DNA from: an uncultured Candidatus Saccharibacteria bacterium
GTDB lineage: Bacteria; Patescibacteriota; Saccharimonadia; CAILAD01; GCA-016700035
Direction: 5' to 3'
Assembly (NCBI GenBank): GCA_964646575.1
Contig: CAZYFT010000002.1
Coordinates: forward strand, 4,459 to 68,458
Length of the DNA stretch: 64,000 bases
In this document: positions 23,938 to 46,476 of the stretch, piece after piece
Layout: each line of letters begins with the position of its first letter
How positions within the stretch are numbered: position 1 is the first letter of the stretch
Notes under the pieces: model-generated
The model's input: only the letters and a program-made list of their open reading frames with translations
What the model was told of the DNA's origin: nothing
Database searches by the model: none
Translations under genes and position numbers: made by a program

Positions 23938-23941
23938 CGAT

Positions 23942-26278: not shown

Positions 26279-26303
26279 TGGCGGTTTTTTTTATGTAACT
26301 GTT

Positions 26304-27438: not shown

Positions 27439-27873
27439 ATGGCTCGTAAGCACAATCCAGACGAAGAGATTTTGCAGGACGAATTCCTCGATGACACCTC
27501 AAGCACTTCTGACGAGTGGATGGGGGAGGAAGAATTTGAAGGGCAGCTTGCCGTCGACGTATATCAAACTAAGGACAGTGTTGTTGTGAAAGCACCGATT
27601 GCTGGTGTTCGATCAGAAGATATCGATATCGCAATCTCTGAAGATGTGATGACAATTCGCGGTGATCGTAAAGAAGAAGTGATTGTAGAAAAAGAGCACT
27701 ACTATGTTCAGGAATGCTTCTGGGGCTCATTCTCTCGATCAATCATCTTGCCTACCTCAACTATTGCCGAGAAGGCTCAGGCCACACTTAAGGACGGCGT
27801 GCTCACCGTAACAGTTCCGAAGGTTGTACAAGAGGATAAGGTGAAGAAGATTAAGGTTAAGCCAGTAGCTTAA
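27439..27873 (+). CDS. Hsp20/alpha-crystallin family small heat shock protein
   Basis: Alpha-crystallin domain blocks (DVYQTKDSVVVKAPIAGV, LKDGVLTVTVPK). 144 aa. Confidence 0.85.
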   Translation: MARKHNPDEEILQDEFLDDTSSTSDEWMGEEEFEGQLAVDVYQTKDSVVVKAPIAGVRSEDIDIAISEDVMTIRGDRKEEVIVEKEHYYVQECFWGSFSRSIILPTSTIAEKAQATLKDGVLTVTVPKVVQEDKVKKIKVKPVA

Positions 27874-27890: not shown

Positions 27891-27920
27891 AAAAAACGCC
27901 CAATTGATGGGCGTTTTTTA
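27891..27920 (+). terminator. bidirectional intrinsic terminator ACGCCCA-ATTGA-TGGGCGT flanked by A6/T5
   Basis: Perfect 7-bp stem with A/T runs on both sides. Lies between convergent genes. Confidence 0.7.
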
Positions 27921-28178
27921 ATGCTTACGAAATCGCTTCCAGAGTAGCAGAGAAGCTACCGGTAACAGAGCGAGTAAAATCAGGAGTATCCACGCCAAGA
28001 TAGTGGGTGAGCATATTGGTGCAGAAGCACCGATCAGCTCACACTGAACACCCGTGCAGTCTATCGGCCCACTCTCACAGTTTTTAAAGTCATAGCTCCA
28101 CCATATTTGTGACATCACCCAAAACACGGGCACATAGCTTACAACAGTAATGAGATACGCTTTTTTGTGAGGCTTCAT
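27918..28178 (-). CDS. small membrane protein
   Basis: 86 aa with two hydrophobic helices. The start overlaps the upstream SBP gene stop. Confidence 0.4.
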   Translation of the reverse strand: MKPHKKAYLITVVSYVPVFWVMSQIWWSYDFKNCESGPIDCTGVQCELIGASAPICSPTILAWILLILLALLPVASLLLWKRFRKH

Positions 28179-29593: not shown

Positions 29594-29971
29594 TTAAAAC
29601 TGCGCGAGTACGAAGTTTACAATTGCGTAGCCGAGGAGTGCCACAACAATACCAACCACCGCATAAAGAATGGTGTCTTTAGCAGCCTGGGTGTTTTTAG
29701 AATCTCCACCGGAAAGAACATAACGCAAGCCGCCAACTACCAGCATAATAACTGCAGCAACGCCTACGATGTAGAGTAGTATGTTCGTAACACGCCCCAC
29801 AGCCTGCGGGACTGTTAGGGGACTAGCCGGACCACACTCTACGCCACTGTTCAGACCACCAGCTGGATCACCACACGCAGCCAAAGCACGCCCTGGTAGC
29901 TGTAATACTGCGGAGACAGCAGATGCGCCCAAGACCGATACCTTTAAAACTGAGTTGCTAGTAAACTTCAC
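29594..29971 (-). CDS. VirB2/TrbC-like pilin-type small membrane protein (paralog 1)
   Basis: 125 aa: signal peptide, hydrophobic helix, short polar loop (GGDSKNTQAAKD), and a second hydrophobic helix to the C-terminus. This is the TrbC/VirB2 topology. Confidence 0.55.
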   Translation of the reverse strand: MKFTSNSVLKVSVLGASAVSAVLQLPGRALAACGDPAGGLNSGVECGPASPLTVPQAVGRVTNILLYIVGVAAVIMLVVGGLRYVLSGGDSKNTQAAKDTILYAVVGIVVALLGYAIVNFVLAQF

Positions 29972-29986
29972 GAAAACCTAGGATTT

Positions 29987-30364
29987 TTACGCTGCAAACT
30001 GACCGAGTACAAAGTTAACAATCGCATAGGCAAGAAGGGCTACAACGATACCGATAACCGCATAAAGAATGGTGTCTTTAGCAGCCTGGGTGTTTTGTGA
30101 GCTACCACCAGAGAAGATGTAGCGGAAACCACCAACGATAAGCATAATCACAGCAACTACACCGATCACAAAGAGCATAGTGTTGGTGATTGTCTGAATG
30201 TTTGCCACGAGATCAGTCTGCTGATCGTCGCCCTTAGCGGCACTAGCGCCTTCGTTAATTCCGCCTACTGCGGCTGAAGCGTGTCCCGCAAGTGAAGCTG
30301 CCACTACGGTATTTCCAGCCAACACGAGTGAACCTTTTTTAAGTAAATCTTTTGCATTACGCAT
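29987..30364 (-). CDS. VirB2/TrbC-like pilin-type small membrane protein (paralog 2)
   Basis: 125 aa. The C-terminal 45 aa are near-identical to paralog 1 (NTQAAKDTILYAVIGIVVALLAYAIVNFVLGQF), including an identical 38-nt DNA stretch. Confidence 0.55.
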   Translation of the reverse strand: MRNAKDLLKKGSLVLAGNTVVAASLAGHASAAVGGINEGASAAKGDDQQTDLVANIQTITNTMLFVIGVVAVIMLIVGGFRYIFSGGSSQNTQAAKDTILYAVIGIVVALLAYAIVNFVLGQFAA

Positions 30365-30507
30365 GTTGTTTATTGTCTCCTTGACTACTAATGATAGCTA
30401 AGTGGGCGAGTGCACACTACTAGGCACATTCTACTGCAAGGAGAGATGTATCAGCAAGCATTATGGGCAAAATTCTTATGCTTATTTTATAAACAGAAGT
30501 AGGTGGC

Positions 30508-31068
30508 CTAGCGGAACTGTGCACTAACAAAGCTAATAATTGCTGTACCCAAAAGCGCCACGCCAACACCAATCACCGCATACAAAATTGCATCTTTTGC
30601 GGATTTTGTCTTGCCCGGGTCTCCAGCTGAAACCACGTACAAGATTCCAGAGACTATTACCATAATTACAGAAGCTGCACCAATAACCCACATGAAGAGC
30701 TGAATGCCCGAATTGACCACGCTCTGAACGTTTGTGGCCCCAGCAACAACTGGCAAGAAAAAATCTACTAACGCTCGAGCGATAATAGCAATTACAAAAC
30801 CGATTACCGTGTAAATAATCGACTGAATAGCCATCTTGGTTCGATCAGGACGACCGGCAGAAATTACAAACATAAAACCTGAGTACACAATCATGACAAC
30901 GCCAACTACACCAACCACCCAAAGCAAGAAAGTGAAAAGATTATTCACCAACTGGGGAAGTGTGGCTGGGCCATTATTAAATTGTGCCGGCTTATTGGTA
31001 GGGAGGGGAAGATTAGTTGCCTCCGCAGCCACAAAAAGCTTAAGACCAAGTTGATGCAAAACGCCCAT
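30508..31068 (-). CDS. tandem-duplicated pilin-like membrane protein (two helix-loop-helix units)
   Basis: 186 aa with two repeats of the hydrophobic-loop-hydrophobic unit (PDRTKMAIQSIIYTVIGFVIAII / PGKTKSAKDAILYAVIGVGVALLG). Confidence 0.5.
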   Translation of the reverse strand: MGVLHQLGLKLFVAAEATNLPLPTNKPAQFNNGPATLPQLVNNLFTFLLWVVGVVGVVMIVYSGFMFVISAGRPDRTKMAIQSIIYTVIGFVIAIIARALVDFFLPVVAGATNVQSVVNSGIQLFMWVIGAASVIMVIVSGILYVVSAGDPGKTKSAKDAILYAVIGVGVALLGTAIISFVSAQFR

Positions 31069-31072
31069 AATA

Positions 31073-31933
31073 TTACCCCGTTATCACTCTACCAATTAAG
31101 TTAAATATCAAACTCACCGAAGCAACTCCAAGTAATCCAATTACCGCATACGTAATAATCTTGCGAGCAGACTGAATAGCTTGTGGGTTTCCGGCAGCGG
31201 TCATCATTCTGATACCTCCCACAATTATCATCGTTACAGCCAATGCGCCTCCAAGGAACTGTATGTACTGCCATACCGCAACAATAAGCTCGAGGATGGT
31301 GTTCTGGTCAAAGTTATTTAGGTCTACACCCAAGAAGCGTCCACCACCAGTAACGCCGATAAGGTCTAGCGTTACACGAGCAGCAAAAAAGAGCGCAATG
31401 CTAGAAGCAGCTAACGTGATGCGTTTCTTACCAGCTTTCAACGCCTCTGGGGAGGCTCCACCGGTAATAACTTGCACCATGCCCAGGCCGATCATAATTG
31501 CAAAAACAAGCACCCCAATATTTAAAATGTAGTTTGTAAGGTTCTCTACAATAGATTCAATTGCAGTTTGATTATTGCCTCCAGTGCAAAGTGTAGAAAC
31601 GAAGCCGCTACTAATAATTTGCCCATCAGCCTTAATATCATTACAAGTGCCTTTAACGGACTGGGGGTTGCTGAGCCTCTCATTTTCGGCAGCCGTACTT
31701 GTACCATTGCCAATTGGCTCACTTCGAGCGGGACCTTTAGTTCCTGGAGGAAGATTCTCAACACATAACGTCCCCCGTGTTGTGTCTTGCCGAGTTGTAC
31801 CAGCAACACCTCCCGTAAGCGTACAGGGTTTACCGGCATCATTTTGTTGATCGGCATAAGCAACCGGAAGGGTATATACATGTAGACTAATAACCAAAAG
31901 AATAAGGAATAAGTACGCGAGGCGGCTTTTCAT
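31073..31933 (-). CDS. secreted domain fused to two pilin-like helix-loop-helix units
   Basis: 286 aa: signal peptide, ~150-aa Cys-containing extracellular region, then two units ending QAIQSARKIITYAVIGLLGVASV. Confidence 0.5.
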   Translation of the reverse strand: MKSRLAYLFLILLVISLHVYTLPVAYADQQNDAGKPCTLTGGVAGTTRQDTTRGTLCVENLPPGTKGPARSEPIGNGTSTAAENERLSNPQSVKGTCNDIKADGQIISSGFVSTLCTGGNNQTAIESIVENLTNYILNIGVLVFAIMIGLGMVQVITGGASPEALKAGKKRITLAASSIALFFAARVTLDLIGVTGGGRFLGVDLNNFDQNTILELIVAVWQYIQFLGGALAVTMIIVGGIRMMTAAGNPQAIQSARKIITYAVIGLLGVASVSLIFNLIGRVITG

Positions 31934-31975
31934 GTCCCTTATTATAAGCGGGTTTGGTATAATTTCGGTAGGGTA

Positions 31976-34900
31976 ATGAATATTCTTTCCAAAAAACTGA
32001 ATATATTTCAGCAGGGGGCGCTGTTTGGCGTCCTGCTTATTCTTTCATTTTTGACATTTTCACAAAAAGCCGCTGCCGCCTCTGCTCCGGGCAAATGGCT
32101 GGATCCCCAAGGTGGACAGTGCCAATGGCTAAATGCAGCGCAGATTAGGTGTGCACCGGTTGCCGGGGCAGCTGTTGCAAACTATGCAGATTACTATTTT
32201 GACCCGCAATCCACCCTCGCTGCTGGGCACGCTGTATACCGAGTAAATGGAAATGATGAAAATCTTTCAGATTGGGGATACATCCATATCCTCAGCGATT
32301 ACGAAGTAGCCCAAATAAGTAACAGTCCAACAGATGCCGTTGGTGGCTACGAGCAAAAACCCATCCAAGATTCTGATAATTTCGCCAATACATCTGATGA
32401 AGAAATTAATGGGCGTCTAGTTTGTGGTCCGGGTAATACATCTGCAGATTGTACGTTGGGCTTTACCAAGAACACAACTCAGTCAAAAAACCCTCTTTCT
32501 GAAAAAGACTACCTCGCCGCACTTACTATTGTCTCCAATGGAGGAAGTGAGTTCTTTAATGGAAAAGCCGCGGAAGAAGACTGCGCCGAGGATGCTGGCT
32601 CATTGGGTTTTGTGTTGTGTCCAATTTTAAAAACAACACGTAATGCTGTGACAGCCCTCATCGGGGACGGGACTGGCAAGGGCTTCTTGGTGGAGTTACT
32701 CACTATCCGACCACTAAGCTCCACAAACACTCCAGAACTTTACAATGGCTGGCAAGCTGTGAGAAATATCGCTCTCGGGCTGTACATATTAGTGTTTGTT
32801 TTAATTATCTTTGGTAATGGAATCGGTTACGACCCCTACACAATTAAGCGAGCATTACCTCGATTGGCAGCCGGCGTTGTCTTAACATTCGCCTCATGGT
32901 GGATCATGCAGACACTTGTAGATCTTTCGAACCTTGTGGGTAATGTTATTCCCGCCTTTGTTGCTCAAATTTCCGGAAATGCCGGAATTGCCGACTATGC
33001 AATCGATCTGAATCCTGCCCTTGCCTTAAGTTCCGTAATCCTGCTCATTGTGGTTGCGTTTGTCGCCCTAGGCGCCTTGCTGGTTGGAATTGCTGGTTTA
33101 ATTATGCGCATAGTTATAATTTATGCGCTTGTCCTCCTAGCGCCCGTTGCATTCATAGCCTGGGTATTACCAAACACTGAAAGCATCTTTAAAAAATGGT
33201 GGAAAAACCTCGTTAAGGTACTCATGATGTTTCCAATAGTTACAGGAATGCTATCACTCTCCTTGTTCTTCCAGACTGTTCTGTTAAACACTCAAACCGA
33301 TGCAGCTGGAAATAGTAATGGTGCCGGCGGGGCAGCAGCGAACTCGGTAACCGGAATAGTAGGTATGCTTGCACCACTCATCGCAATCATCATGATTCCT
33401 AAGACCTTTAAGTGGGGTGGAGAGGCTTTCGCTGCGGCGGCTGGATACATGGCCGGAAAGGCCAGTGGGGCTGCCGACAAAGTTGCAAACGCGCCAAAAA
33501 CTGTTGGTGGCAAAGCTGCCGGGAGCGCAAAAGAACGAGCACTTGCAAGTGACCGTGTAGCTCGTATGACTGGCGGCATGGCTTCCAACAGGCTAGGTCG
33601 GCTGGCTGGCGGAAAAGCTGCTATGCGAGCTAGTGGTAGAGCCAGAGGTAGGGTTGTGAGTGAGGCCGAAAGTCTAACGAAGAATATGACAAACGACCAG
33701 CTCGAGAAAATTGCTGCAACCGGGACCACAGAAGAAAGAATCGCAGCAATTGGTCAGCTCGCAAAGCGAGGTGACCGTAAAAAACTTGCTAGCCTTGGAT
33801 CAAAAGATGGAAAAACCGCAAAGGCCTACAATGAAGCAAGTAGTAGATATGCTGGTGATTTTGGAAAGAATGCAGACCTTCGAAGGATTGGTGGCAAGCT
33901 AACTAATACGAGCGACCTGTCGGTCGAAGATGCAGCAAACCTCAACCAAGACGCGCTGGCAGTTGGCCTGGCAACTGGATCTATTTCCTACGCAACAGCC
34001 AAGTCCATGTATGAAAGCGATAAGGTTAAAGCATCATTGTCTCCTCAAAAAATGCACGACCTCACAACTTATCTAAGCGGGGCAGGCTACAAGGACTCTT
34101 CAGGTAAGCCTATTCAGGTGCAGGGTAAGAATAACCGTTCAGACACCGATACTGTGATCGGAACAAGAACTACCGCTGATGGTCGAGGTCAGAAGATTAC
34201 AGTAAATGGATCCAGCTCACTAAATACGCAACTCAAGGCAACTGCCGTACAGGCAAAAGTTCAATACGATGATCATATGAATGGAGTTGTTGACGCCAGC
34301 GGGAATCGAGTACCGATGAATGTTAACCCCGAATCTGTAGCTCTAGATCCTAACACTACAAGCATTGAAACACCTCCTGTAGTTAAGGCTGCACCGAGTG
34401 GCTCTATACCCTACAGGGCAGGTAAGGCTGTTGGGCAGGTACGCAGCCAAATGGGCCAAGGAGGTTACGTGGCAGTGCCCGGAGGAAACACCACCAATAC
34501 TGGGGCCCCAACTCAGCAGGCAAGCCCAGCGCCACCACCGCCGCCACCACCAAGTGGAGGGGCACCAACTTACACCACACCGGCCGGAGCACCTAGGTAT
34601 ACGACGAGCGGTACGCCTGTACCTCCACCTCCAACCGGTAACGTTCCAGTTTGGAGCAACCCTACACCGCCACCGCCAAGTGGAACCTCAGGCAGCACAA
34701 CACCACCTCCATACACGGGTCCAGCGGCGCCATGGCAGCCAGCCCCAAGTTCACAAACCCCACCTCCACCACCAAGTGGAGGGGCGCCTACCAGCACGAG
34801 CGGTGGAGGCACAGTCATAAACAATGTCACCAACGAAAATTCAACGACAAATAACAACTCAACTACCAACAACGTAAAAACCGTTCTCAACAACAACGGC

Positions 34901-35188
34901 ATACCGAGTTCGATTGCGCTTGGTGCAGCCACGCAGCTTGGAAGTGCCAAAAATCGCTTCGGAGCAGGATCAGCTGAACACGACGGCCTAGCCGGTATCG
35001 AGAGTAAGCTCAATGATCTGGGTCGTATGATTCAGTCCGGCTCACTCAGCCAAACTCGATTGCGTGAAAACATCCGTGACATCCATCGTGATATCGATGA
35101 TCTCCCGCCCGGAGCACATGACCAGCAAGATAACCTACGTGGCGTACTCAATAACATCGAACGCAATGCCACCGACGACGAGGCATAG
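31976..35188 (+). CDS. VirB6/TrbL-like polytopic T4SS channel protein with long Pro-rich C-terminal extension
   Basis: 1070 aa: signal peptide, ~250-aa exodomain, five or six TM helices (res ~260-480), then K/A-rich repeats and PPPPPPSGGAPT-type Pro-rich repeats. This is the architecture of Gram-positive VirB6 homologs. Confidence 0.5.
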   Translation: MNILSKKLNIFQQGALFGVLLILSFLTFSQKAAAASAPGKWLDPQGGQCQWLNAAQIRCAPVAGAAVANYADYYFDPQSTLAAGHAVYRVNGNDENLSDWGYIHILSDYEVAQISNSPTDAVGGYEQKPIQDSDNFANTSDEEINGRLVCGPGNTSADCTLGFTKNTTQSKNPLSEKDYLAALTIVSNGGSEFFNGKAAEEDCAEDAGSLGFVLCPILKTTRNAVTALIGDGTGKGFLVELLTIRPLSSTNTPELYNGWQAVRNIALGLYILVFVLIIFGNGIGYDPYTIKRALPRLAAGVVLTFASWWIMQTLVDLSNLVGNVIPAFVAQISGNAGIADYAIDLNPALALSSVILLIVVAFVALGALLVGIAGLIMRIVIIYALVLLAPVAFIAWVLPNTESIFKKWWKNLVKVLMMFPIVTGMLSLSLFFQTVLLNTQTDAAGNSNGAGGAAANSVTGIVGMLAPLIAIIMIPKTFKWGGEAFAAAAGYMAGKASGAADKVANAPKTVGGKAAGSAKERALASDRVARMTGGMASNRLGRLAGGKAAMRASGRARGRVVSEAESLTKNMTNDQLEKIAATGTTEERIAAIGQLAKRGDRKKLASLGSKDGKTAKAYNEASSRYAGDFGKNADLRRIGGKLTNTSDLSVEDAANLNQDALAVGLATGSISYATAKSMYESDKVKASLSPQKMHDLTTYLSGAGYKDSSGKPIQVQGKNNRSDTDTVIGTRTTADGRGQKITVNGSSSLNTQLKATAVQAKVQYDDHMNGVVDASGNRVPMNVNPESVALDPNTTSIETPPVVKAAPSGSIPYRAGKAVGQVRSQMGQGGYVAVPGGNTTNTGAPTQQASPAPPPPPPPSGGAPTYTTPAGAPRYTTSGTPVPPPPTGNVPVWSNPTPPPPSGTSGSTTPPPYTGPAAPWQPAPSSQTPPPPPSGGAPTSTSGGGTVINNVTNENSTTNNNSTTNNVKTVLNNNGIPSSIALGAATQLGSAKNRFGAGSAEHDGLAGIESKLNDLGRMIQSGSLSQTRLRENIRDIHRDIDDLPPGAHDQQDNLRGVLNNIERNATDDEA

Positions 35189-35190
35189 TT

Positions 35191-36030
35191 ATGGGGCAGT
35201 ATAAAGTCCCTCAAAACGTAGAGAGTGAAGATAGACTCCTAGGCCCCTTAACGATGAAGCAATTCATCTACGCTATCATTGGTCTTGGGTGGGGATTCCT
35301 TATTTGGCGTATTCTCTCACCGGGAGGCACGGCTGCAATCCCCATTATGCTTCTGCTCATTGTGCCGGTTTCTGGTTTTATGCTTCTCTTGGCATTCGGC
35401 AAAAGGGAAGAGCAGAGTTTTGAGAATTATCTCATTGCCCTCATTCGTTTTAGTGTCGTACCGCGCAAGCGCATTTGGCTGAAAGACGACTTTAAGGGTG
35501 AAGTGATTATTGATGCACCACCTCCGCCAAAACCCACAACTCCAACTAAAGAAGATATTGCGCATGTCCACAGCCGCTTACAACAACTCTCACTAGTTGT
35601 AGACACGCGTGGACACGCCAAGACTCCAGATGTTCAGCTGGCCGACCAAACAAATCGGGCTGCGGAATTTTCTCAGCGCGTATTTACACCTCCGGAACTC
35701 CAAAAACCTATCTTAGAAGGGGGAGTGCAAGAACAAGATGACGTATTAGCAACAACAGAAGCAACAGCCGCTCAAGCGCAAAAAGTTGATGAGCTACTAC
35801 AAAACCAAGAGTACTCCATACGCGAAGAGGCCATGAAAAAGATGACTCAGGCCGTCGAAAATCCCGAAACTCAGGCCGCCGAAACCCCTACACAAACCTC
35901 CCAGCCACCAGCTGATAATGCTATACTGAAAAAGGTTATGGATGCACCTCACCTAAGTGTTGCTCAGGTAGCCCAAGTGGCTAATCGTGGGCAGCTCGCA
36001 CAAGGTCAGGAAATCCAAATCCAACAATAA
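35191..36030 (+). CDS. VirB3/PrgI-like small membrane protein with extended C-terminus
   Basis: Two N-terminal TM helices (FIYAIIGLGWGFLIW... IPIMLLLIVPVSGFMLLLAF) and a position immediately upstream of virB4. Confidence 0.4.
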   Translation: MGQYKVPQNVESEDRLLGPLTMKQFIYAIIGLGWGFLIWRILSPGGTAAIPIMLLLIVPVSGFMLLLAFGKREEQSFENYLIALIRFSVVPRKRIWLKDDFKGEVIIDAPPPPKPTTPTKEDIAHVHSRLQQLSLVVDTRGHAKTPDVQLADQTNRAAEFSQRVFTPPELQKPILEGGVQEQDDVLATTEATAAQAQKVDELLQNQEYSIREEAMKKMTQAVENPETQAAETPTQTSQPPADNAILKKVMDAPHLSVAQVAQVANRGQLAQGQEIQIQQ

Positions 36031-36177
36031 AACGTATAAAAACCAAGACAGAAGACCCTCTAAATAACAAAATCTTTGAAGGTTGCTGTCTTTTTTTGTT
36101 ATGATGATATATTCGTCACTCAACAGCAATACAGTGATGAGGGTGTTCAAAAGTAAAAGAGGGAGAGAGAAGTTCGC

Positions 36178-37098
36178 ATGCCACAGGAGGCTGCCAAAAC
36201 TCCACAACAAATTGAATATGAGAAATCGATCACTCCTACTAAGGAGTCGAAAGATCAGCGCACCAGCACGCAAAACCACCTGATGTTTACCGAAATTAAG
36301 GATGGCATCGTTGTAATGCGTGATGGCTCTTTGCGTATGGTCGTACTTGCGAGTGCGCTCAACTTTGACCTTAAGAGCCCGCAAGAACAGGATGCGATCG
36401 AATATGCCTACCAAGGATTTTTAAATGGTCTGCATTTTCCGATTCAAATTATCGTACGCTCTCGCAAACTCGAACTTGATGGCTACCTGGAAAATCTTGA
36501 AGTCTTACAGGCAAATCAAGAAAATCCACTTTTAGCCGGACTAATGGAAGATTATATTTACAATATTCGTGGGCTTTTGGAGCAAGTAAACATCATGAAT
36601 AAAGAGTTTTATGTCGTTGTGCCATACTACTTGGATGTCGCGTCAAAAAAGAAAGATAATGCCGGATTTAAGCTCGCCAGCCTCTTTAAAACTAACACCG
36701 ACACTATGCAAACCACGGAGATGTTTGAGCAACGCAAACGTGATCTTATTCAGCGCACTAATCTTGTTGCGCAAGGGTTGGCACAGCTTGGTATCCGGGC
36801 AGCCGTACTCTCAACCCAAGAAATTACCGAGCTCTTCTATACTGCCTACAACCAGGAAGAAGCTATTAATCAAAACTTAGTGGACATCGAACAAATGACT
36901 ACGCCAGTTGTAGAACGCGGCGATGCAGATCCAGAGCCATATACTCAGTCTTCCTACACCGAGCCAGTGCCAGATGATTTATATTCTGCGGCCGCTCAAG
37001 CCCAACAACCCGCAGCCCCAACTGAGGGAACTACTCCAGTTCAACAGCCTGCAGCTCAGCAACCACCACAAAATCCATTGATTGGAGGAGGGGTATAA
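36178..37098 (+). CDS. T4SS-associated hypothetical protein (306 aa) translationally coupled to virB4
   Basis: TAATG stop-start overlap with virB4, different reading frame, Gln/Pro/Ala-rich tail. No catalytic motif. Confidence 0.5.
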   Translation: MPQEAAKTPQQIEYEKSITPTKESKDQRTSTQNHLMFTEIKDGIVVMRDGSLRMVVLASALNFDLKSPQEQDAIEYAYQGFLNGLHFPIQIIVRSRKLELDGYLENLEVLQANQENPLLAGLMEDYIYNIRGLLEQVNIMNKEFYVVVPYYLDVASKKKDNAGFKLASLFKTNTDTMQTTEMFEQRKRDLIQRTNLVAQGLAQLGIRAAVLSTQEITELFYTAYNQEEAINQNLVDIEQMTTPVVERGDADPEPYTQSSYTEPVPDDLYSAAAQAQQPAAPTEGTTPVQQPAAQQPPQNPLIGGGV

Positions 37099-39005
37099 TG
37101 GCGCGCAAACCAAAAGTCGATCCCGCTCAACAGGCCGCCATTGATATGGCTGCAGCTCAGCAACAAGAAGCTGAACGCGCCTATCGCGAGGGTATTCTTA
37201 CTCTGCGTGACATTATTGCACCAAGCTCGTTTACCATCGAGAATAATTACCTCATTATTGGCACTCGCTATGTGCGCACATTGTTTGTGTACGGCTATCC
37301 GCGCACCCTATTTACCGGTTGGCTCTCGCCAATTATCAACCTCGATGAGGTTATTGATATTTCGCTCAATATCATGCCGGTTGAAAGTCGTGTAGTACTT
37401 GAGAACCTCAAGAAAAAAGTAGGTCAACTCGAAGCCTCTGTGCAAATTAACGCCGAAAAAGGTAAGATTCGCGATCCAGGACTAGAAGCTGCCATTGGTG
37501 ACGCCGAAGAACTTCGCGACAAGCTCCAGGTAGGTGAAGAACGCTTCTTCCGTTTTGGGCTTTACATCACGCTCTACGGAAAGGATATTGAGGAACTCGA
37601 TCTTATTCAACGCAAAATTGAATCCATCCTCGGAACAAGCCTCGTCTACACAAAACCTGCTAGCGTACAGATGGAACAAGGTTTCAACTCGACACTCCCA
37701 ATTGGCACCGATCAGCTGGGTATTTACCGCAACATGAACACGGGATCACTCTCAACTAGTTTTCCGTTTACTACCGCCGAACTCTCTCGCAATGAAGGGG
37801 TTATGTATGGCTTAAACCGCCACAACAATGGACTCGTGCTGTTTGATCGTTTCAGTCTCGAAAATGCCAACATGGTAGTGTTTGCAAAGTCTGGTTCCGG
37901 TAAGAGCTTTACCGTAAAACTCGAGTGCTTGCGCTCGCTCATGCTGGGTGCAGAGATCATTATTATCGATCCAGAAAACGAATACCGCACGCTATGTGAC
38001 GCAGTGGGCGGGAGCTACATTCATTTGTCACTCGCCAGTAGTACTCGTATTAACCCATTTGATATCCCAACCACAGTTGATCCCGAAGAAGCCGACAACG
38101 CGCTGCGCGCAAACATCATCATGCTACACGGTTTGCTCCGTTTGATGTGCGGTAAGCTTGAGCCAGCAGAAGAAGCAGACCTGGATGTTGCCCTTATTAA
38201 TACCTACGCCCAAAAAGGCATTACCAACGATCCGCTAACACATCGCAGCCAGCCACCTGTGATGAGCGATCTGTATAACACCCTCATTACCATGGGTGGA
38301 ACCGGCCCAGCAATTGCCGCCCGTCTGCGTCGCTACACCGAAGGCACATTCTCTGGTATTTTCTCTCAGCAATCAAACGTCCAGCTCGATAATAAATTTG
38401 TCGTCTTCAATATTCGCGACCTCGAAGATGAGTTACGTCCAATTGGTATGTATATTACGCTGAACTATATCTGGAACCGTGTAAAAACCGATCGACGTAA
38501 GCGCATTCTAGCCGTAGACGAAGCCTGGCAGCTTATGAAGCACCCTGACTCGGCATCATTTATGTTCTCAATCGCTAAGCGCGCCCGTAAGTATTATCTA
38601 GGACTCACAACCATCTCGCAGGACGTGGAGGACTTCTTAAACGACCGCCTGGGACGTGCTGTAGTAAACAACAGCTCATTGCAGGTCCTTCTAAAGCAAG
38701 CACCATCCGCCGCCGATGTTGTTGCGGAAACATTCAAGCTAACAAGTGAAGAAAAAAACCGCCTAACTCAGTTCCCGGTAGGAGAGGGGCTATTCTTTGC
38801 TGGATCTAACCACGTGGTTATTCGCATTTTGGCGAGCCCCATGGAAGAGCAGCTCATCACCACTAACCCGCAACAACTTCTCGAACGACAAATGCGCGAC
38901 CAAGAAGAAGCCCAACTACAGGCCGCAGAACCAGCCCCGGAATTGCAACAAACAGCTCCAGAACCACCGGCAACATACCAGCAGCCAGGAGGGCAGGTTA
39001 GCTAA
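37098..39005 (+). CDS. virB4: VirB4/TrbE/CagE-family T4SS ATPase
   Basis: Walker A FAKSGSGKSFT, Walker B ILAVDEAWQL and the VirB4 N-terminal domain (LIIGTRYVRTLFVYGYP). 635 aa. Confidence 0.9.
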   Translation: MARKPKVDPAQQAAIDMAAAQQQEAERAYREGILTLRDIIAPSSFTIENNYLIIGTRYVRTLFVYGYPRTLFTGWLSPIINLDEVIDISLNIMPVESRVVLENLKKKVGQLEASVQINAEKGKIRDPGLEAAIGDAEELRDKLQVGEERFFRFGLYITLYGKDIEELDLIQRKIESILGTSLVYTKPASVQMEQGFNSTLPIGTDQLGIYRNMNTGSLSTSFPFTTAELSRNEGVMYGLNRHNNGLVLFDRFSLENANMVVFAKSGSGKSFTVKLECLRSLMLGAEIIIIDPENEYRTLCDAVGGSYIHLSLASSTRINPFDIPTTVDPEEADNALRANIIMLHGLLRLMCGKLEPAEEADLDVALINTYAQKGITNDPLTHRSQPPVMSDLYNTLITMGGTGPAIAARLRRYTEGTFSGIFSQQSNVQLDNKFVVFNIRDLEDELRPIGMYITLNYIWNRVKTDRRKRILAVDEAWQLMKHPDSASFMFSIAKRARKYYLGLTTISQDVEDFLNDRLGRAVVNNSSLQVLLKQAPSAADVVAETFKLTSEEKNRLTQFPVGEGLFFAGSNHVVIRILASPMEEQLITTNPQQLLERQMRDQEEAQLQAAEPAPELQQTAPEPPATYQQPGGQVS

Positions 39006-42000
39006 TGTTTCGCCTGGAGGGTGACTCACAGGACCCGCTCACTAGCTCTCGACACTACAAAGATATTAAGAGTGCCGGTAAGCAGTCCAACACTGGACCT
39101 GGATCGATGGCTGACAAGGCAGCGAACGGGCATATAGACAGCCTTTCATCGGCCGGCAAGAAGGGCGGTGAAGCTGCTGCAAAAGGCAGCCCTAGTGCTA
39201 GTGGTGCTGCGTCGAAAGGTGCTTCCAGTGCCGGTGCTAGCGCCACAAAAGAAGCCGGAAAAGCCGCGGCCGATGCGGCGGCTAAAAAATCCATTTCTAA
39301 GGCCGTAGGAAAATCGCTCGGTAAAGGCCTTAATGTAAAAGGTGATCTTGATGATGTAAAACGCACCGCACAAGAAGATGGTGCGGCTGCTGCGGCTGCT
39401 GCGGCAGGTCTAAAAGCTGCCGAAACAGTCGCCTCAAAAGTACCAATCGCATCGCAAGTCGCAACAGCCATTCGGGCTGGCCAAGCTGCCCTGGCTAAAG
39501 TTGGTATCAATATTAAGGATCAGTACATTATGTACATACTCTTATTGGTGCCAATTCTTGCCCTCGTGCCAGTGATAGTTTTTGCACTTATTGTGTTTTT
39601 CGCCTGGAAAAATCCACAAGCTGTCCTCAAGCTTTCATTTACCAATTTTAAAACTTTTGTTGGTGCAGCCCAGTCACTCGTCATCGAAAACGGAGGTGCC
39701 TCAAAGATGGCTTACGAAGTTGAGGCAGGGAGCAATCGTGCAGTCGCAGCTCCGGGTGATGCAGCAAAACCAGAGGAAGGCACGTACGAATACAAATTGG
39801 CTCAAATTGACTGGGAAAAGGCAAAATATCAAACCCTCCCACTTGATAGCCGCTGCGTGATCAAAACAAAAAAAGTTGTTTCTGTTCTCGACGGAAAAGA
39901 GAGGTCGATTATTGAGTCTGTAGAGCTTAAAACTAATCCTGGTAGGGACCTCCAGGGGGTAGCTCGGTCCAACTGTATTAACAATACCTATCCAATTTGG
40001 AATACTATGATGCGCTCACAATTTGTGCGTGATGGCGTCAATAAAAATCTCAATGTTCGCTACGCATATGCCGAACCGCAAGACTCAACTACACTCGACG
40101 AATCTTCCGATGAATTCTCAACCACCCTCCGCGACAAAACTCTCACCAGAATATGGAATCGTGGCCAAGCTATCAATAAACCCATTCAATCCACACCTGA
40201 AGAGGTTACGGCAAATGATGAAGAAGTAAAACGCTTCTTCACTAACACCCGAAAAGTTCAAAAGTACGCAGAAGAAACTAACATCGCAAAATATAGCAAT
40301 GAAGTAATTACTTGTGCTGATATGTATGTCCCGAAAGGGGATAGCTACTATCAAAAAGATATCGACAAAATGAATCATGACCTGGCATGCGGCATTAACC
40401 CCAAAGATATTCTGCTATATACGACTAGTCCACCCGAAAGCTCGACAAATGATCCTGATCCATCAATCGCCATCAAGCCAAAACGAGCAGCTCTCAATGT
40501 AGTTTGTGATCTCTACTATAATCTTCTTGCCCCAGATAGCGATTATGCTCCAGCAGTAGATAAGTACCGACAAAAAGTAAAAGACCGCATCAACTCTGCA
40601 GCTGTTGCTGGCTGGCAAGCCATGACATATGCCGATACACACCAAAAAAGATTTATCGACCTTAAAGAGTTGGGGGGAGACTTTTATAAAATTTCCGGTA
40701 TACAGCAAGGTCAAGAATACAATTATGCCCTAGACTACCGAAAGAATGGAGTTGCGCTCGAACCTGATGCTATCTCCCGCATTGTTGGCTACTACAACAA
40801 GCAAGCAGATGCCATTCCAGCCATCCAGCAAGAAAAACAATATCAAGATGCATTAAATCTTATCTTCACATACGTAACTTCAGGGGGCGACGCCTCTCCT
40901 TGTGATGCAGCTCGAGATACTGGCGAATTCGATAACACAACCAGCAACGACCCTCAGAGAGACGCAAAAATTAATACTTTTTATAGCGATGTGTATCCTG
41001 CATTCAAAAAGGCAATCGCCGGAATAGACTTCTACGCCAACCCATCACAAAGCAAATCCGTAAGCCAAATTTATACAGACCTCACATACGAAGATCTTCG
41101 CTTCCGATTAATTCGCATTGAATCTAACGTTGCAACCGCCGGAACAGAAGATGGTCCTCAAAACTTTAACCGTATGAACTTCGGCATGAAAGCCTACACA
41201 AACGCTTTTACCCTTTCGATGGGTGGAAATTTCCTTACACAAAATGAGGCTATTAGCCGCGATGAATCGACTCGGGTTGCAAGATACTATGATGACAAAA
41301 CAAAGGGGATTGCTTGGCGCTTCTTCAACCTTGATAACCCCGGCTCATTTGCAAGTAGGCTTGCCGTAGCATCTACCGATAAGCCCCAAAATATACCTGG
41401 AAATATAACATCGACCATCGCATACGTCATGAACCCAATTAGAAATGCTGCGGGAGAAAATGGTACCCTTACAGCATTTCTCACGGGTGAGAGCCGTGTT
41501 GCTTCCGCTAGTTCAGTCTACGATTCTTCAAACTTAAAGCTAGACCCGGCAGGTATGCCCGAAGCCTTCAATCAGATCAATCCAATTGAGAATGCGCGCT
41601 ACATTGAAGGTGTCAAGAAAAATAACCCAACTCTCGCCACCGAACTCGCTGGCTACGATCAGTGCTTTAAAGAGTTTATTCCAAGCCGGTTCCATCTGCT
41701 GAATCCACCTCCTGACAAAGTAGATCTCTACAAAAACGTATGTACGCCACTCCTAGACAGCACTGCCACGCGAGATCCAAATAGTCTCATTCTCCGCTAC
41801 CGAGCCTATCACTTTCATATGCTCCAAGCTGATGCACTCGTATATTTGTCAGATCCTAATAAGGAAGATCCCAACTTCAGTGCGCCAGAAGGCGGAAGTA
41901 CAACAAATCCTGTTGCTGCCACTCCAGGCGGTGGAACACCCACTAACCCAAGTGGCGATACCTCAGCATTGCAATGCCCACCAGGAACTACCGACGCGGG

Positions 42001-42421
42001 TATCGGTGAAAAATATGGTGTCGGCCGCGTGCTCATGCACCGACTCCGACTCTGTAATGTACAAGGTATCACCGTAAATGTTTCAATTGCCAATTCGTTG
42101 AATGCCATGCTCACCGAGATGAAGGGAGCTGGTATTAATCTTGGAGGTTGGGGTTATCGAACCTTCGATAAACAGGTGGAGCTCAGAACTACAAATGGCT
42201 GTCCGGATACCTATAATAGTCCAGCAAGCACATGCGGAACACCAACCGCACGACCTGGACAATCAAATCACGAAAATGGAGAGGCGATCGATTTCACTTC
42301 CGGAGGATCAACATTGCGTAGCGGAACTCCAGGCTTCAATTGGCTTAAAGCAAACGCCGCTCGCTACGGGTTTAAAAATCTGCCTTCAGAATCATGGCAC
42401 TGGTCGATTGACGGGAAATAA
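39005..42421 (+). CDS. giant surface protein with C-terminal peptidase M15 (VanY/D-Ala-D-Ala carboxypeptidase-like) domain
   Basis: 1138 aa: Ala/Lys/Ser-rich N-terminus, one TM helix, a large exodomain, and C-terminal SNHENGEAIDF (SxHxxGxAxD) and ESWHW zinc-ligand motifs. Its start overlaps the virB4 stop (TAATG). Confidence 0.65.
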   Translation: MFRLEGDSQDPLTSSRHYKDIKSAGKQSNTGPGSMADKAANGHIDSLSSAGKKGGEAAAKGSPSASGAASKGASSAGASATKEAGKAAADAAAKKSISKAVGKSLGKGLNVKGDLDDVKRTAQEDGAAAAAAAAGLKAAETVASKVPIASQVATAIRAGQAALAKVGINIKDQYIMYILLLVPILALVPVIVFALIVFFAWKNPQAVLKLSFTNFKTFVGAAQSLVIENGGASKMAYEVEAGSNRAVAAPGDAAKPEEGTYEYKLAQIDWEKAKYQTLPLDSRCVIKTKKVVSVLDGKERSIIESVELKTNPGRDLQGVARSNCINNTYPIWNTMMRSQFVRDGVNKNLNVRYAYAEPQDSTTLDESSDEFSTTLRDKTLTRIWNRGQAINKPIQSTPEEVTANDEEVKRFFTNTRKVQKYAEETNIAKYSNEVITCADMYVPKGDSYYQKDIDKMNHDLACGINPKDILLYTTSPPESSTNDPDPSIAIKPKRAALNVVCDLYYNLLAPDSDYAPAVDKYRQKVKDRINSAAVAGWQAMTYADTHQKRFIDLKELGGDFYKISGIQQGQEYNYALDYRKNGVALEPDAISRIVGYYNKQADAIPAIQQEKQYQDALNLIFTYVTSGGDASPCDAARDTGEFDNTTSNDPQRDAKINTFYSDVYPAFKKAIAGIDFYANPSQSKSVSQIYTDLTYEDLRFRLIRIESNVATAGTEDGPQNFNRMNFGMKAYTNAFTLSMGGNFLTQNEAISRDESTRVARYYDDKTKGIAWRFFNLDNPGSFASRLAVASTDKPQNIPGNITSTIAYVMNPIRNAAGENGTLTAFLTGESRVASASSVYDSSNLKLDPAGMPEAFNQINPIENARYIEGVKKNNPTLATELAGYDQCFKEFIPSRFHLLNPPPDKVDLYKNVCTPLLDSTATRDPNSLILRYRAYHFHMLQADALVYLSDPNKEDPNFSAPEGGSTTNPVAATPGGGTPTNPSGDTSALQCPPGTTDAGIGEKYGVGRVLMHRLRLCNVQGITVNVSIANSLNAMLTEMKGAGINLGGWGYRTFDKQVELRTTNGCPDTYNSPASTCGTPTARPGQSNHENGEAIDFTSGGSTLRSGTPGFNWLKANAARYGFKNLPSESWHWSIDGK

Positions 42422-42424
42422 TCT

Positions 42425-44335
42425 ATGAAAATAAGAAAACTACATCTCAATAAATTGAAGGCTAGATTCGTTAGTTTTACGTACATTGTCTCTACATTGC
42501 TTCTTATTGTGACGCCAGCTCAAGCTGCGAGCGAACAGCGACAAGATATCGAGCGCACTCCTTTTTACGATAAAAATGCTGAACTAATTTGTGGGCCATC
42601 TGGCTCATCGCAAGCAGCAGGGGGCGGAGGACTTACGGTTGGGGGATCAGTCTACTATCTTGGTGATTCCATAGGTGAAGGAGTTAAGACTCCTCTCGAA
42701 AAAAATCTCACAACAGCAGGCTATAAGATAGTGGTCAATGCGAGTAATTCTCGCTCTATCAGTGGTCCGGGAAGAGATGGGTTGTCTGGCTTGGAAGCGG
42801 CAGCGAAAGACGCCGCCGTGATTCAAGGCGCTCAAGTAGTAGTTATTGAGCTTGGCACAAATCCAGAGTCGAATGGTGATTTTGCAGGCAATCTTAATAA
42901 CCTGATCACACAAATTAAAACAGCCGGCCCACAGGCAAAAATCTATCTTGTAGATGTTGCCGTAACGACCGAACAAGCTACTCGACTCGGATCGGCTAAT
43001 GTAAATAAAGCAATTTATGCAAAAGCCGCAGAGCTCGGTACGCCAGTGATAAGTAGATTTAAAATTTATTATCCTGGGGGTAATCCGGAAACCTTCGAAA
43101 ATACTGCAAGCCCCTCATTACCATTTGATGCCGCTGGAATTCATAGCCCTAACTCACAAGGTTATGAAGCGCTTGCGGGAGTTATCCAGACCACCATCAC
43201 TACCTCGAGTGCACTCGCAACACCAAGTGCATCCGACCCCTGTCAGTGTCCAGTTTCAGGGGGTGCCGGAGGAAGCGCGGCCACCATTAACCTTGCCGGT
43301 AACGATAATGTTGAAAAAGCATTTAACTTCTTCGTAAGCAAGGGCTTTACGCCACAGCAATCTGCCGGAATCGTAGGTAACCTGATTGCAGAATCTGGTG
43401 TAAATCCAAAGCGGGTCCAGAGTACCCCAACCCCCGAAGGGGACCGAGATAATATTACGGTCAACAACAAAACTGGCTACGGCATCGCACAGTGGACTTC
43501 TTCTGGGCGACAGCAAGGCTTGGTTGATCTTGCACGATCCCGCGGCATGACTATCGAAGGCGATCTAGCGCTTCAGCTCGACTATTTAATGATTGAGCTT
43601 ACCGTCGGCTATAAAGATGTATATGACGCTATTAAACTTTCCGCAGACCTTAAGGCCGCTTCAGATGTATTTATGACCAAGTTTGAACGCCCTGCAGATC
43701 AGAGTGAAACTGCTCGGCAAAAACGTGCCGGTATGGGGCAGCAGGTACTAGATCTGTATGGCAACGGCGCAAGTGCCAGTGGCGCCCTCATTAGCGGAGC
43801 AACAAACTGTAATACCGGAGCAGGGGGACAGGCGGCCGGCTTCGTAGGCTTCCCACTCCAAACCACTAAAGCGCGAATGACCGAGCTAAATGGTGGTCAA
43901 TTTAAGAATGGAGTGATGGGGCAAGGTGGACATCCATATGCAGCGCACGACATCATGGCCGACCCCGGCACCCCAGTAGCCGCAATTCTATCTGGCAAGG
44001 TTGTGCAGGTGGGAACGGATAAGTGTCCGGGTAGACTCATTGCTGTCTGGAGTGAGCAGGCAGGCGTAACTGTTGCATACCTACACCTATCCATCGAACA
44101 AACCATCGTGAAGGAAGGTGATTCTATTGCTGAAGGTCAAATAATCGGCTTCGTTGGGCCACCGGCAGCTGGCTGCGGAACCCCGCACCTCCACATTGAT
44201 GCAAACACAACAGACCGCCGAATAGGCTGCAAGCGTGAAAGTTGTTCTGCAGAAAACAAAGCGCTGTTTCAGGCTGGAAGCGATAAGATTGGGCTACCAA
44301 AATCACTTTTCGATAGCTACCAAAGACTACCGTAA
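42425..44335 (+). CDS. secreted three-domain cell-wall hydrolase: SGNH esterase + lysozyme-like muramidase + M23 peptidase
   Basis: Signal peptide; GDSIGEG (SGNH block I); AGIVGNLIAESGVNP...GYGIAQWTSSGR (CwlT/phage-tail lysozyme-like); HPYAAHDI and TPHLHID (M23 HxxxD/HxH). Confidence 0.75.
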   Translation: MKIRKLHLNKLKARFVSFTYIVSTLLLIVTPAQAASEQRQDIERTPFYDKNAELICGPSGSSQAAGGGGLTVGGSVYYLGDSIGEGVKTPLEKNLTTAGYKIVVNASNSRSISGPGRDGLSGLEAAAKDAAVIQGAQVVVIELGTNPESNGDFAGNLNNLITQIKTAGPQAKIYLVDVAVTTEQATRLGSANVNKAIYAKAAELGTPVISRFKIYYPGGNPETFENTASPSLPFDAAGIHSPNSQGYEALAGVIQTTITTSSALATPSASDPCQCPVSGGAGGSAATINLAGNDNVEKAFNFFVSKGFTPQQSAGIVGNLIAESGVNPKRVQSTPTPEGDRDNITVNNKTGYGIAQWTSSGRQQGLVDLARSRGMTIEGDLALQLDYLMIELTVGYKDVYDAIKLSADLKAASDVFMTKFERPADQSETARQKRAGMGQQVLDLYGNGASASGALISGATNCNTGAGGQAAGFVGFPLQTTKARMTELNGGQFKNGVMGQGGHPYAAHDIMADPGTPVAAILSGKVVQVGTDKCPGRLIAVWSEQAGVTVAYLHLSIEQTIVKEGDSIAEGQIIGFVGPPAAGCGTPHLHIDANTTDRRIGCKRESCSAENKALFQAGSDKIGLPKSLFDSYQRLP

Positions 44336-44349
44336 AAAGAAAGGGAACT

Positions 44350-45138
44350 ATGAATAAACTCTCCACTCAAGCCAAGCTGATTATCGGACTCTCATTCGTA
44401 ACCCTAGTATTGCTCTGCGTGATGATATATGTGCAGTTCGTTCAGTTTCGTATTGTTAAATCTACCCCCGATACAAACAACTACCCAAGCACAATGGGCC
44501 TACTCGTAGTGGAGTTTAATGAAAAATTAGACGCCAAGGCTATTCAGGATGCATACAATAAAGATGCAGCAAGTGTTATAAAGTTTAGTTTTGATAGCCC
44601 AGCCTATATAGAAGTGTATGATAAGACTCTCAAGATAACGATTCAGGAAACTGCTAAAGAAGGTAAGTACAAACTTCTACTTAATAATATTAAATCTGAA
44701 GACGGCAGTATATTTAAACAGGAAATTCCTTTTGTCGTAAAGAATATTGCATACAATGACATGCCCGAAGAAACGCAAAAACTTTTTAATGAGTATGCTT
44801 CAGAGGGAGAGACTCTGCCTCAAGATCCAATTGTAGGAGTGCTCCCTTACCAAACGGATAAGTATAAAATTAGCTACGTTTTTCCAGAAGAAAATGTTGA
44901 GATACCCGCAACAATAACTATTACTATGAAATTCTTTGAGCCAGGTGATAATGCATTACCAGAAACGCCAGCCCAAAGACAGGCTTATTTAAATGACCTC
45001 AGAAAATATCGGACCGAAGCGTTAGCCTACCTCAAAGATAAGGGCATCGATATTAATAAATATGTCATAAAATATACGGAGTTTGATTTACAAAACGAAT
45101 TTCCGTCTGGATACGTCGCTCAACCAGAAACCGAATAA
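44350..45138 (+). CDS. membrane-anchored extracytoplasmic protein (AT-rich), last gene of the T4SS-like operon; VirB8-like topology
   Basis: 262 aa with a single N-terminal TM and a ~230-aa external domain. Assignment is by position and topology only. Confidence 0.4.
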   Translation: MNKLSTQAKLIIGLSFVTLVLLCVMIYVQFVQFRIVKSTPDTNNYPSTMGLLVVEFNEKLDAKAIQDAYNKDAASVIKFSFDSPAYIEVYDKTLKITIQETAKEGKYKLLLNNIKSEDGSIFKQEIPFVVKNIAYNDMPEETQKLFNEYASEGETLPQDPIVGVLPYQTDKYKISYVFPEENVEIPATITITMKFFEPGDNALPETPAQRQAYLNDLRKYRTEALAYLKDKGIDINKYVIKYTEFDLQNEFPSGYVAQPETE

Positions 45139-45146: not shown

Positions 45147-45419
45147 TTAGCCAATACGTATAAATATTTTTTCTAGTTTTTGACCGGTCTTCTTTACGAT
45201 TTCGCGTTCTATCTGAATTTTACGCATACGAATTTCACTAGCCTCAACTGGATGACCAACAGTTATACGTAATAAACCCTCGTTAAAACTCACCGAATCA
45301 ACAGTTACTCCAGACCGTCTTTTTATAATCTCTTTAACCATCTTAAAAAACTGCAAGATATCAAACTGCGCATCCAAGTTCTTACGTGACAAGCTGTCGC
45401 CAATTCTTTCAAAACTCAT
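45147..45419 (-). CDS. small protein downstream of recF (DUF721/DciA-like position)
   Basis: 90 aa. 4-nt overlap with the recF stop. Conserved gene-order position only. Confidence 0.4.
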   Translation of the reverse strand: MSFERIGDSLSRKNLDAQFDILQFFKMVKEIIKRRSGVTVDSVSFNEGLLRITVGHPVEASEIRMRKIQIEREIVKKTGQKLEKIFIRIG

Positions 45420-46468: not shown

Positions 46469-46476
46469 CGATCCTC

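Follow-up and report, generated by a model that had tools for sequence, protein, structure and literature searches.

We analysed a 64,000-nucleotide stretch (hereafter the window) of contig CAZYFT010000002.1, positions 4,459 to 68,458 of the forward strand, from an uncultured Candidatus Saccharibacteria bacterium, and focused on the interval 29594-45138. An earlier note, made from the letters alone, had read this interval as a Gram-positive-type type IV secretion system (T4SS) with an array of pilins and no coupling protein. Listing and translation of the open reading frames (ORFs) confirmed that all those named in that note are present where it had placed them, and profile searches with Pfam, as it had proposed, and with NCBIfam recognised pilin, PrgI/VirB3, VirB4 and hydrolase families. 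The locus is arranged as follows (aa, amino acids; TM, transmembrane):

29594-29971, minus strand: pilin 1, 125 aa; Sec-type signal peptide and one VirB2-like two-helix hairpin domain
29987-30364, minus strand: pilin 2, 125 aa; signal peptide and one VirB2-like hairpin domain
30508-31068, minus strand: pilin 3, 186 aa; two hairpin domains fused in tandem, with four TM helices in all
31073-31933, minus strand: pilin 4, 286 aa; signal peptide, Cys-containing N-terminal region of about 100 aa, two tandem pilin hairpin domains
31934-31975, no strand: divergent intergenic region of 42 bp between the start codons of pilin 4 and the VirB6-like gene
31976-35188, plus strand: predicted extended VirB6/TrbL-like polytopic membrane protein, 1070 aa (TM segments, TrbL profile, ortholog matches)
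35191-36030, plus strand: PrgI/VirB3-like membrane protein, 279 aa (PF12666 PrgI, E 2e-14)
36178-37098, plus strand: TrsD-like protein, 306 aa; N-terminal module of VirB4 encoded as a separate gene
37098-39005, plus strand: VirB4 ATPase, 635 aa (NCBIfam and PDB matches, Walker motifs)
39005-42421, plus strand: membrane-anchored cell-wall hydrolase, 1138 aa (PF02557 VanY, E 1.1e-10)
42425-44335, plus strand: secreted multi-domain peptidoglycan hydrolase, 636 aa (PF13472; PF18013, E 6.6e-32; PF01551)
44350-45138, plus strand: bitopic membrane protein of 262 aa, encoded at the end of the operon; N-terminal TM anchor, Ig-like (immunoglobulin-like)/CopC-like beta-sandwich and a small alpha/beta domain

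This is almost certainly the chromosomal T4SS of Saccharibacteria, an ortholog of SEML1_0004-0019 of Southlakia epibionticum ML1, in which Wang et al. 2023 (Cell, PMC10633639) described 'an apparent T4SS (SEML1_0006-0019)' that was essential by transposon sequencing (Tn-seq) and closest to Gram-positive conjugative systems. Our data support its classification as an MPF_FATA-related T4SS with a VirB2-like pilin array, located in the core chromosome beside oriC. At least 8000 database relatives of its VirB4 have an E value of 1e-10 or lower; the best of these are 76-100% identical, and those that carry an organism name are Saccharibacteria or unclassified 'bacterium' proteins from metagenome-assembled genomes (MAGs). 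In a species-representative genome collection, at least 571 stretches among the 600 candidates examined encode a VirB4 relative, and relatives at 63-95% identity belong to Saccharibacteria MAGs of many species. We kept 80 related loci for comparison, mostly titled Candidatus Saccharibacteria, Saccharimonadia or Saccharimonadales. Mapping the window proteins onto these loci, which amounts to the synteny comparison that the earlier note had called for, revealed the same gene order (hsp20, pilins on the opposite strand, VirB6-like, PrgI, TrsD-like, VirB4, hydrolase or hydrolases, recF, dnaN, dnaA) in dozens of Saccharibacteria species. This recurrence marks the locus as part of the core genome of the class, passed on vertically, and not as an island. 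Judging from its closest homologs and from a CD1110-family match above the cutoff, the VirB4 protein itself appears to belong to a Patescibacteria group related to MPF_FATA.

The locus encodes no ATPase apart from VirB4. This protein scores 379 bits against NF045971 (CD1110 family, cutoff 325) over model positions 184-732 of 752, and its match to PDB entry 4ag5 has an E value of 1e-52. The residues of its Walker A motif (KSGSGKS, K264-S270) and Walker B motif (DEAW, D474-E475) are invariant among orthologs, in full agreement with the initial description of a VirB4 ATPase with clear Walker motifs; the match to the CagE_TrbE_VirB N-domain is weak (Pfam E 0.009). At 635 aa, the protein lacks the module found at the very N-terminus of full-length VirB4 from MPF_FATA systems, and it aligns to the VirB4 model of Mycoplasma integrative and conjugative elements (ICEs; NF045975) at positions 283-893 of 894. 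Structure comparison and the NCBIfam models of full-length VirB4 identify the 306-aa ORF immediately upstream as a TrsD-like, detached N-terminal VirB4 module. Among 44 orthologs of the 306-aa protein, 30 match NCBIfam TrsD and 25 match the Mycoplasma-ICE VirB4 model at positions of about 92-284, while some match the CD1110 model at 11-79. The AlphaFold2 model used has a modest pLDDT of 62, which rises to about 75-85 in the core. Profile-profile alignment (hhalign) of the TrsD-like family with the lineage's own VirB4 returned nothing (probability 1%), and a sequence-profile search of the PDB with the same family gave no meaningful match. The TrsD-like gene overlaps virB4 by TAATG, behind a Shine-Dalgarno sequence (GGAGGAGG), an arrangement of translational coupling. 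The ORF had originally been described as coupled but 'extra': the coupling stands, whereas the supposed extra gene is part of a split VirB4, and this split into a TrsD-like protein and a short VirB4 is kept in 78 of the 80 related loci. Most orthologs of the 306-aa protein (P0146-P0265) carry a precomputed Pfam match to PF26593, so a curated family for the TrsD-like protein apparently exists.

All four minus-strand proteins pass the cutoff of the T4SS_pilin family PF18895 (43.7-74.1 bits, cutoff 26.6), with E values of 3e-11 for pilin 1, 2.4e-12 for pilin 2 and, in two stretches each, 9.4e-21 for pilin 3 and 4.9e-18 for pilin 4, which is the first gene of the array. Two of them additionally match TrbC/VirB2 (PF04956), the sister family of PF18895, pilin 1 with an E value of 8e-4 and pilin 2 with 3.4e-6, at 27.6 bits only 0.3 bits short of the gathering cutoff of 27.9. 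Proteins of the array also match an NCBIfam family from Mycoplasma ICEs, 'Mbov_0395 pilin-like conjugal transfer protein', and for one protein the score exceeds the cutoff; the match of pilin 2 has an E value of 5e-10, and pilin 3 scores 51.6 bits against NF045849 (cutoff 40). TM analysis gives a topology of a signal peptide followed by two hydrophobic helices with a short polar loop, and Sec-type signal peptides can be read on at least three of the four proteins. The initial view of four small membrane proteins with VirB2/TrbC topology is borne out as regards the topology. Since pilins 3 and 4 hold two domains each, the array amounts to six hairpin domains in four genes, with pairwise identities of 14-65%; pilins 1 and 2 are the closest pair (65% identity across the domain), and their genes form a 74% nucleotide repeat.

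In the window and the 80 related loci together we counted 230 pilin ORFs. Most loci carry five to seven, and the usual array consists of six genes with one domain each, whose lengths follow a recurring pattern. ORFs with two domains are rare: there are 5 among the 230, and two of these five are pilins 3 and 4 at 30508-31933. In 24 six-domain arrays that we compared, positions 1, 2 and 3 each find their best match at their own position across species, and positions 4-6 form one group. This positional orthology, added to the finding that every single ML1 pilin is essential, points to distinct pilin roles rather than interchangeable variants. In addition, the natural fusion of two neighbouring pairs suggests, by Rosetta-stone logic, that neighbours are in contact within the assembly. 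It is tempting to speculate that the six domains are fixed, distinct subunits of an obligately heteromeric stalk or membrane ring, unlike the homopolymeric VirB2 pili described to date, and not exchangeable or antigenically varying versions of a single pilin, but we hold this idea tentatively and consider it rather doubtful.

The product of the first plus-strand gene has a signal peptide and an N-terminal domain of about 220 aa with conserved Cys residues. Its TM block covers residues of about 259-479, and its long C-terminal part is hydrophilic and contains Pro-rich repeats, which are also visible as repeats in the DNA. TrbL is matched by 14 of 42 orthologs (best E 7.5e-5), and the ML1 orthologs were annotated as TrbL/VirB6-like from structure (PMC10633639); at the level of the family, a VirB6/TrbL identity is supported. 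The earlier note had proposed a VirB6-like protein with a Pro-rich exodomain. Its polytopic nature and Pro-rich tail are evident, but the evidence on the orientation of the tail is conflicting, so that an outside location is unproven: hydropathy gives about six hydrophobic segments past the signal peptide, implying a C-terminus outside, whereas the residues directly behind the final segment are very rich in K and R and an ARM-like annotation was given to the ML1 orthologs, both of which suggest a C-terminus inside. The C-terminal extensions of the aligned orthologs (loci L001-L078) are highly variable, ranging from 420 to 1485 aa. In three orthologs there is a Peptidase_S74 domain (best E 3.4e-8), the 'chaperone of endosialidase' that also occurs on phage tail spikes, and one has a weak BID-domain match (E 0.031). 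Downstream, the PrgI/VirB3-like protein, for which the PrgI profile supports the VirB3-like assignment made initially, has a TM segment at residues 25-72 and a long hydrophilic C-terminal tail; its gene was found in 69 of the 80 related loci.

Two cell-wall hydrolases follow virB4, which the earlier note had described as giant and secreted. This description suits the 636-aa protein, which has a signal peptide followed by SGNH/GDSL esterase, phage-tail lysozyme and M23 endopeptidase domains, matches lysostaphin and the phi29 'morphogenesis protein 1' in the PDB, and shares its pairing of lysozyme and M23 domains with phi29 gp13. The 1138-aa protein, on the other hand, is not freely secreted but anchored in the membrane by a single TM helix (about 172-204), which separates a low-complexity N-terminal segment of about 170 aa from a region of about 800 aa with no known domains and a C-terminal VanY/M15 carboxypeptidase; its matches to D-Ala-D-Ala carboxypeptidases in the PDB have E values of about 1e-3. 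The last gene of the operon encodes a fast-evolving 262-aa protein with 25 homologs, and a membrane-anchored gene fills the same operon-terminal slot in most related loci. A VirB8 identity was considered for this protein and rejected: as first noted, its topology is bitopic like that of VirB8, but its fold is an Ig-like beta-sandwich and not that of VirB8. We instead regard it as a positional and structural analog of SEML1_0005 of ML1.

The plus-strand operon spans 31976-45138, with junctions that overlap or are 2-14 bp apart, plus one gap of 147 bp. Consistent with the divergent organisation originally described, it is separated from the pilin genes by only the 42 bp between the two start codons. 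Direct reading of 31934-31975 reveals a TATAAT box on each strand, each no more than about 14 nt from its own start codon, and the segment is likely a bidirectional promoter region; the proximity of the boxes to the starts suggests very short leaders or leaderless transcripts. A consensus promoter/terminator scan did not flag 31934-31975, and the 14 promoter-like sites it returned, against 24.6 expected, represent no enrichment over shuffles. The 13-kb operon is transcribed toward oriC on the strand with negative GC skew, so that transcription meets the replication fork head-on. Transcription of the pilin genes, recF, dnaN and dnaA runs with the fork, and the same relative orientation is found in related loci.

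The surroundings of the locus are chromosomal on both sides:

45416-49388, minus strand: replication origin region with recF (45416-46468), dnaN (46477-47574) and dnaA (47910-49388) (Pfam)
25525-27873, both strands: tRNA-Ser (25525-25614), ComFC-like gene (26708-27364, minus) and Hsp20 gene (27439-27873, plus), the same context as in ML1

DnaA-box clusters at 47730-47878 and 49358-49431 and a cumulative GC skew minimum near 47 kb place the end of the operon about 2.6-4.3 kb from oriC, in keeping with the distance of about 3 kb first proposed. Beyond recF-dnaN-dnaA lie rnpA, yidD, yidC and jag on the plus strand, and the opposite flank continues upstream with tRNAs and the housekeeping genes ValRS, TsaD, FemAB, PGM and GroES/EL. 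A solute-binding-protein gene (SBP_bac_1; 28175-29569, minus strand) and an 86-aa ORF occupy the space between hsp20 and the pilins (27918-29569); a solute-binding-protein gene is present at that spot in only 2 of the 80 related loci (L003 and L004). Four tRNA-like genes are tightly clustered at 23866-24273 on the plus strand. ARAGORN reads two as a normal tRNA-Phe(GAA) and tRNA-Pro(GGG) and gives the other two, at 23942-24015 and 24196-24273 (Rfam tRNA scores of 53.8 and 43.2 bits), four-base anticodons ('ctta' and 'gaaa') with no amino-acid assignment. Far from the locus, 4696-6465 on the minus strand encodes a membrane protein of 589 aa that matches no Pfam family; this is where the GC content of the window is highest (0.607 versus about 0.48).

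Pfam scans covered 57 ORFs of the 64-kb window, that is, all chosen ORFs of at least 150 aa except dnaN, which was recognised by sequence, and one that overlaps the tRNA-Ser gene. None of these 57 ORFs encodes a VirD4/TcpA-type coupling protein, a relaxase or an integrase, which bears out the claim that the window has no VirD4 coupling ATPase or relaxase. No att-like direct repeats were found flanking the locus, and its GC content is similar to that of the surrounding sequence. This check of the flanks, together with housekeeping neighbours in conserved synteny, agrees with the original placement in the core chromosome; we rejected a mobile element on account of the missing integrase, relaxase, type IV coupling protein (T4CP) and att-like repeats and of the conserved synteny.

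VirB4 is said to act in pilin dislocation and pilus biogenesis, a role associated with the work of Kerr and Christie in 2010 and of Mace and colleagues in 2022, and extraction and polymerisation of pilins by VirB4 are established in diderm systems. By analogy, VirB4 with its TrsD-like module, PrgI and the VirB6-like protein could form a membrane platform that, powered by VirB4, would pull Sec-inserted pilin hairpins out of the membrane and polymerise them into a short filament or stalk, probably heteromeric. The anchored M15 hydrolase and the secreted esterase/lysozyme/M23 hydrolase would open the cell wall of the epibiont itself and possibly also that of its host, and the filament or stalk would then act as a conduit or contact device at the interface between epibiont and host rather than as a conjugation machine. 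A pilus or conduit role has been put forward speculatively (PMC12857230), and both the export of effectors and the uptake of molecules from the host have been considered in print (PMC11665869, PMC10633639, PMC12857230). Taking the locus as a whole, we consider a non-conjugative role at the host interface quite probable. The earlier note had likewise inferred a non-conjugative T4SS for interaction with a host or partner or for filament assembly, which matches how the essential S. epibionticum cluster is viewed in the literature.

Several observations weigh against this interpretation. No VirB8-like component (NTF2-fold; PrgL, TraM or TcpC type) was found at the locus. The VirB6-like protein of the window is itself below threshold for Pfam TrbL (E 0.29, spanning profile positions 33-207 of 215). 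A profile of the pilin-domain family had no meaningful match in the PDB, including the sequences of solved VirB2/TraA, and the proposed pilin homology draws on profile matches (Pfam, NCBIfam) and on Foldseek matches published for the ML1 orthologs, the top ones being 'TrbC/VIRB2 family protein' with scores of about 0.75 (PMC10633639). A T4CP may also be encoded elsewhere in the same genome: T4CP homologs are commonly far from virB4 in Patescibacteria (PMC12102498), and a T4CP-free window is therefore not proof of a T4CP-free genome. Moreover, no experiment has shown a pilus, a substrate or a transport direction in any Saccharibacterium, and the function has been called 'completely unknown' (PMC11665869). 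Essentiality for epibiotic growth comes only from Tn-seq of the ML1 orthologs (PMC10633639).

It is conceivable that the locus encodes an uptake machine similar to Helicobacter ComB or archaeal Ced, that is, a VirB4-only T4SS importing DNA, nucleotides or other molecules from the attached host, which would feed an organism unable to make nucleotides. From what is generally known of ComB, the set of VirB2-, VirB3-, VirB4- and VirB6-like proteins with neither T4CP nor relaxase resembles that system. The weak NCBIfam matches of VirB4 to CedB and CedD point in the same direction, but this similarity reflects a shared P-loop domain only, and nothing encoded in the locus is recognisable as a DNA-binding protein or a nuclease. 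A ComFC-like gene is found at a distance of 2 kb from the pilins in the window as well as in ML1, yet comFC (SEML1_0021) is non-essential in ML1 while the T4SS is essential, and deletion of comEC kills competence but not growth (PMC12857230, PMC10633639). Therefore, although an uptake role has been proposed before (PMC11665869, PMC12857230), we regard it as unlikely.

We also weighed whether the locus could be the mating-pair-formation module of a conjugation apparatus, with T4CP and relaxase encoded elsewhere or too divergent to recognise. The VirB4, PrgI and TrsD families are otherwise conjugative, and 2,918 genomes of Patescibacteria have T4CP homologs, which are mostly distant from virB4; the number of genomes with a relaxase, in contrast, is only 103, and ML1 does not need its T4CP homolog for growth (PMC12102498). 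Essentiality for growth would be unexpected of a conjugation system, as would a core locus that is syntenic across species beside oriC, has the GC content of its surroundings and is flanked by neither integrase nor att repeats, and we judge this explanation very improbable. The missing T4CP, relaxase and VirB8-like protein and the division of VirB4 in two could alternatively betray a degenerate, functionless remnant of an integrated conjugative element. However, all ORFs are intact and tightly coupled, VirB4 is 63-95% identical over many species with invariant catalytic motifs, the divided VirB4 is itself conserved in 78 of the 80 loci, and the ML1 orthologs are essential (PMC10633639). Decay is thus effectively refuted by the conservation of the locus, and we give it next to no credence.

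The system itself is of biological interest: the saccharibacterial T4SS is the first reported to be essential for the growth of its own carrier, the only monoderm-type T4SS with VirB2-like pilins, and a leading candidate for how ultrasmall epibionts of the candidate phyla radiation exploit their hosts. The window adds one more member to a cluster present in hundreds of Saccharibacteria genomes. Our modest additions, useful for structural modelling, are the natural pilin-pilin fusions, the position-specific orthology within the pilin array, and a TrsD-like protein and short VirB4 that are complementary to the full-length Mycoplasma/Clostridioides VirB4 models.

The closest known system is that of ML1, which is alike almost gene for gene in families, order and chromosomal address, from dnaA-dnaN-recF to tRNA-Ser. 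In ML1 (PMC10633639 and its supplement), dnaA, dnaN and recF are followed by SEML1_0004; 0005, exported, with Ig-like and OmpATb-N-like domains; 0006, a hydrolase with a phage-tail lysozyme domain; 0007, of 1113 aa; 0008, VirB4; 0009; 0010, PrgI; 0011, a T4SS protein; 0012, NTF2-like and non-essential; 0013, TrbL/VirB6-like; six PF18895 pilins (0014-0019); hsp20; comFC; and tRNA-Ser. Nearly all ML1 genes that match the window locus scored as essential, including every pilin individually, and coupling and relaxase proteins were not recognisable (PMC10633639); neither organism has a T4CP or relaxase nearby. The two loci differ in several respects. Only one VirB6-like gene is present here versus two in ML1, and the NTF2-like gene (SEML1_0012) is not present. 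Six pilin domains are distributed over four genes, two of them tandem fusions, rather than over six separate genes, and a solute-binding-protein gene lies between hsp20 and the pilins, unlike in ML1. The hydrolase domains here are VanY, GDSL and M23, as opposed to glucosaminidase and lysozyme in SEML1_0006.

A survey of the phylum by Quinonero-Coronel et al. 2025 (Microb Genom, PMC12102498) likewise described a Patescibacteria VirB4 clade related to MPF_FATA, with TrsD as the most abundant associated component alongside PrgI, VirB6 and arrays of 2-11 VirB2-like pilin genes, with rare relaxases, T4CP homologs mostly far from virB4, and T4SS genes near dnaA. A 2025 article in FEMS Microbiology Reviews (PMC12857230) regards these T4SSs as unique among monoderm ones for their essentiality and potential pili. 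The combination of VirB2-like pilins with a Gram-positive-type set, which the earlier note had flagged, is indeed unusual among T4SSs, but it is not new, having been published between 2023 and 2025. Because all the features flagged there as unusual were already in print (PMC10633639, PMC12102498, PMC12857230), we count the locus as a rediscovery of a published system.

Among conjugative systems, we compared the locus with MPF_FATA T4SSs, namely pCF10 Prg/Pcf, pIP501 Tra, pGO1 Trs, the C. difficile CTn2/CD1110 family and Mycoplasma ICEs. Common to both are a CD1110-family VirB4, PrgI/VirB3, a TrsD-type module, a polytopic protein of the VirB6/PrgH class, a large membrane-anchored cell-wall hydrolase downstream of virB4, and pilin-like matches to Mbov_0395, from a Mycoplasma ICE. 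Unlike in those systems, a T4CP of the PcfC/TraJ class, a relaxase or oriT, a PrgB-type adhesin and a VirB8-like PrgL/TraM fold were not detected at the locus, which moreover is part of the chromosomal core and encodes six VirB2-like domains. Its hydrolase domains are M15, SGNH, lysozyme and M23, in contrast to the SLT/CHAP domains of MPF_FATA systems.

Among diderm T4SSs, Helicobacter ComB, which takes up DNA, Bordetella Ptl and Brucella VirB likewise combine VirB4 and a VirB2-like pilin in the absence of VirD4 (PMC12102498, PMC11665869), and the existence of such T4CP-less systems makes non-conjugative import or export roles possible. They differ from the saccharibacterial locus in their diderm envelope, in their VirB7/9/10 outer-membrane core and in that none is essential for growth. 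Diderm TrwK/VirB4 is only distantly related to the VirB4 of the window (E 4e-4), whereas the match to Firmicute VirB4 reaches 1e-52.

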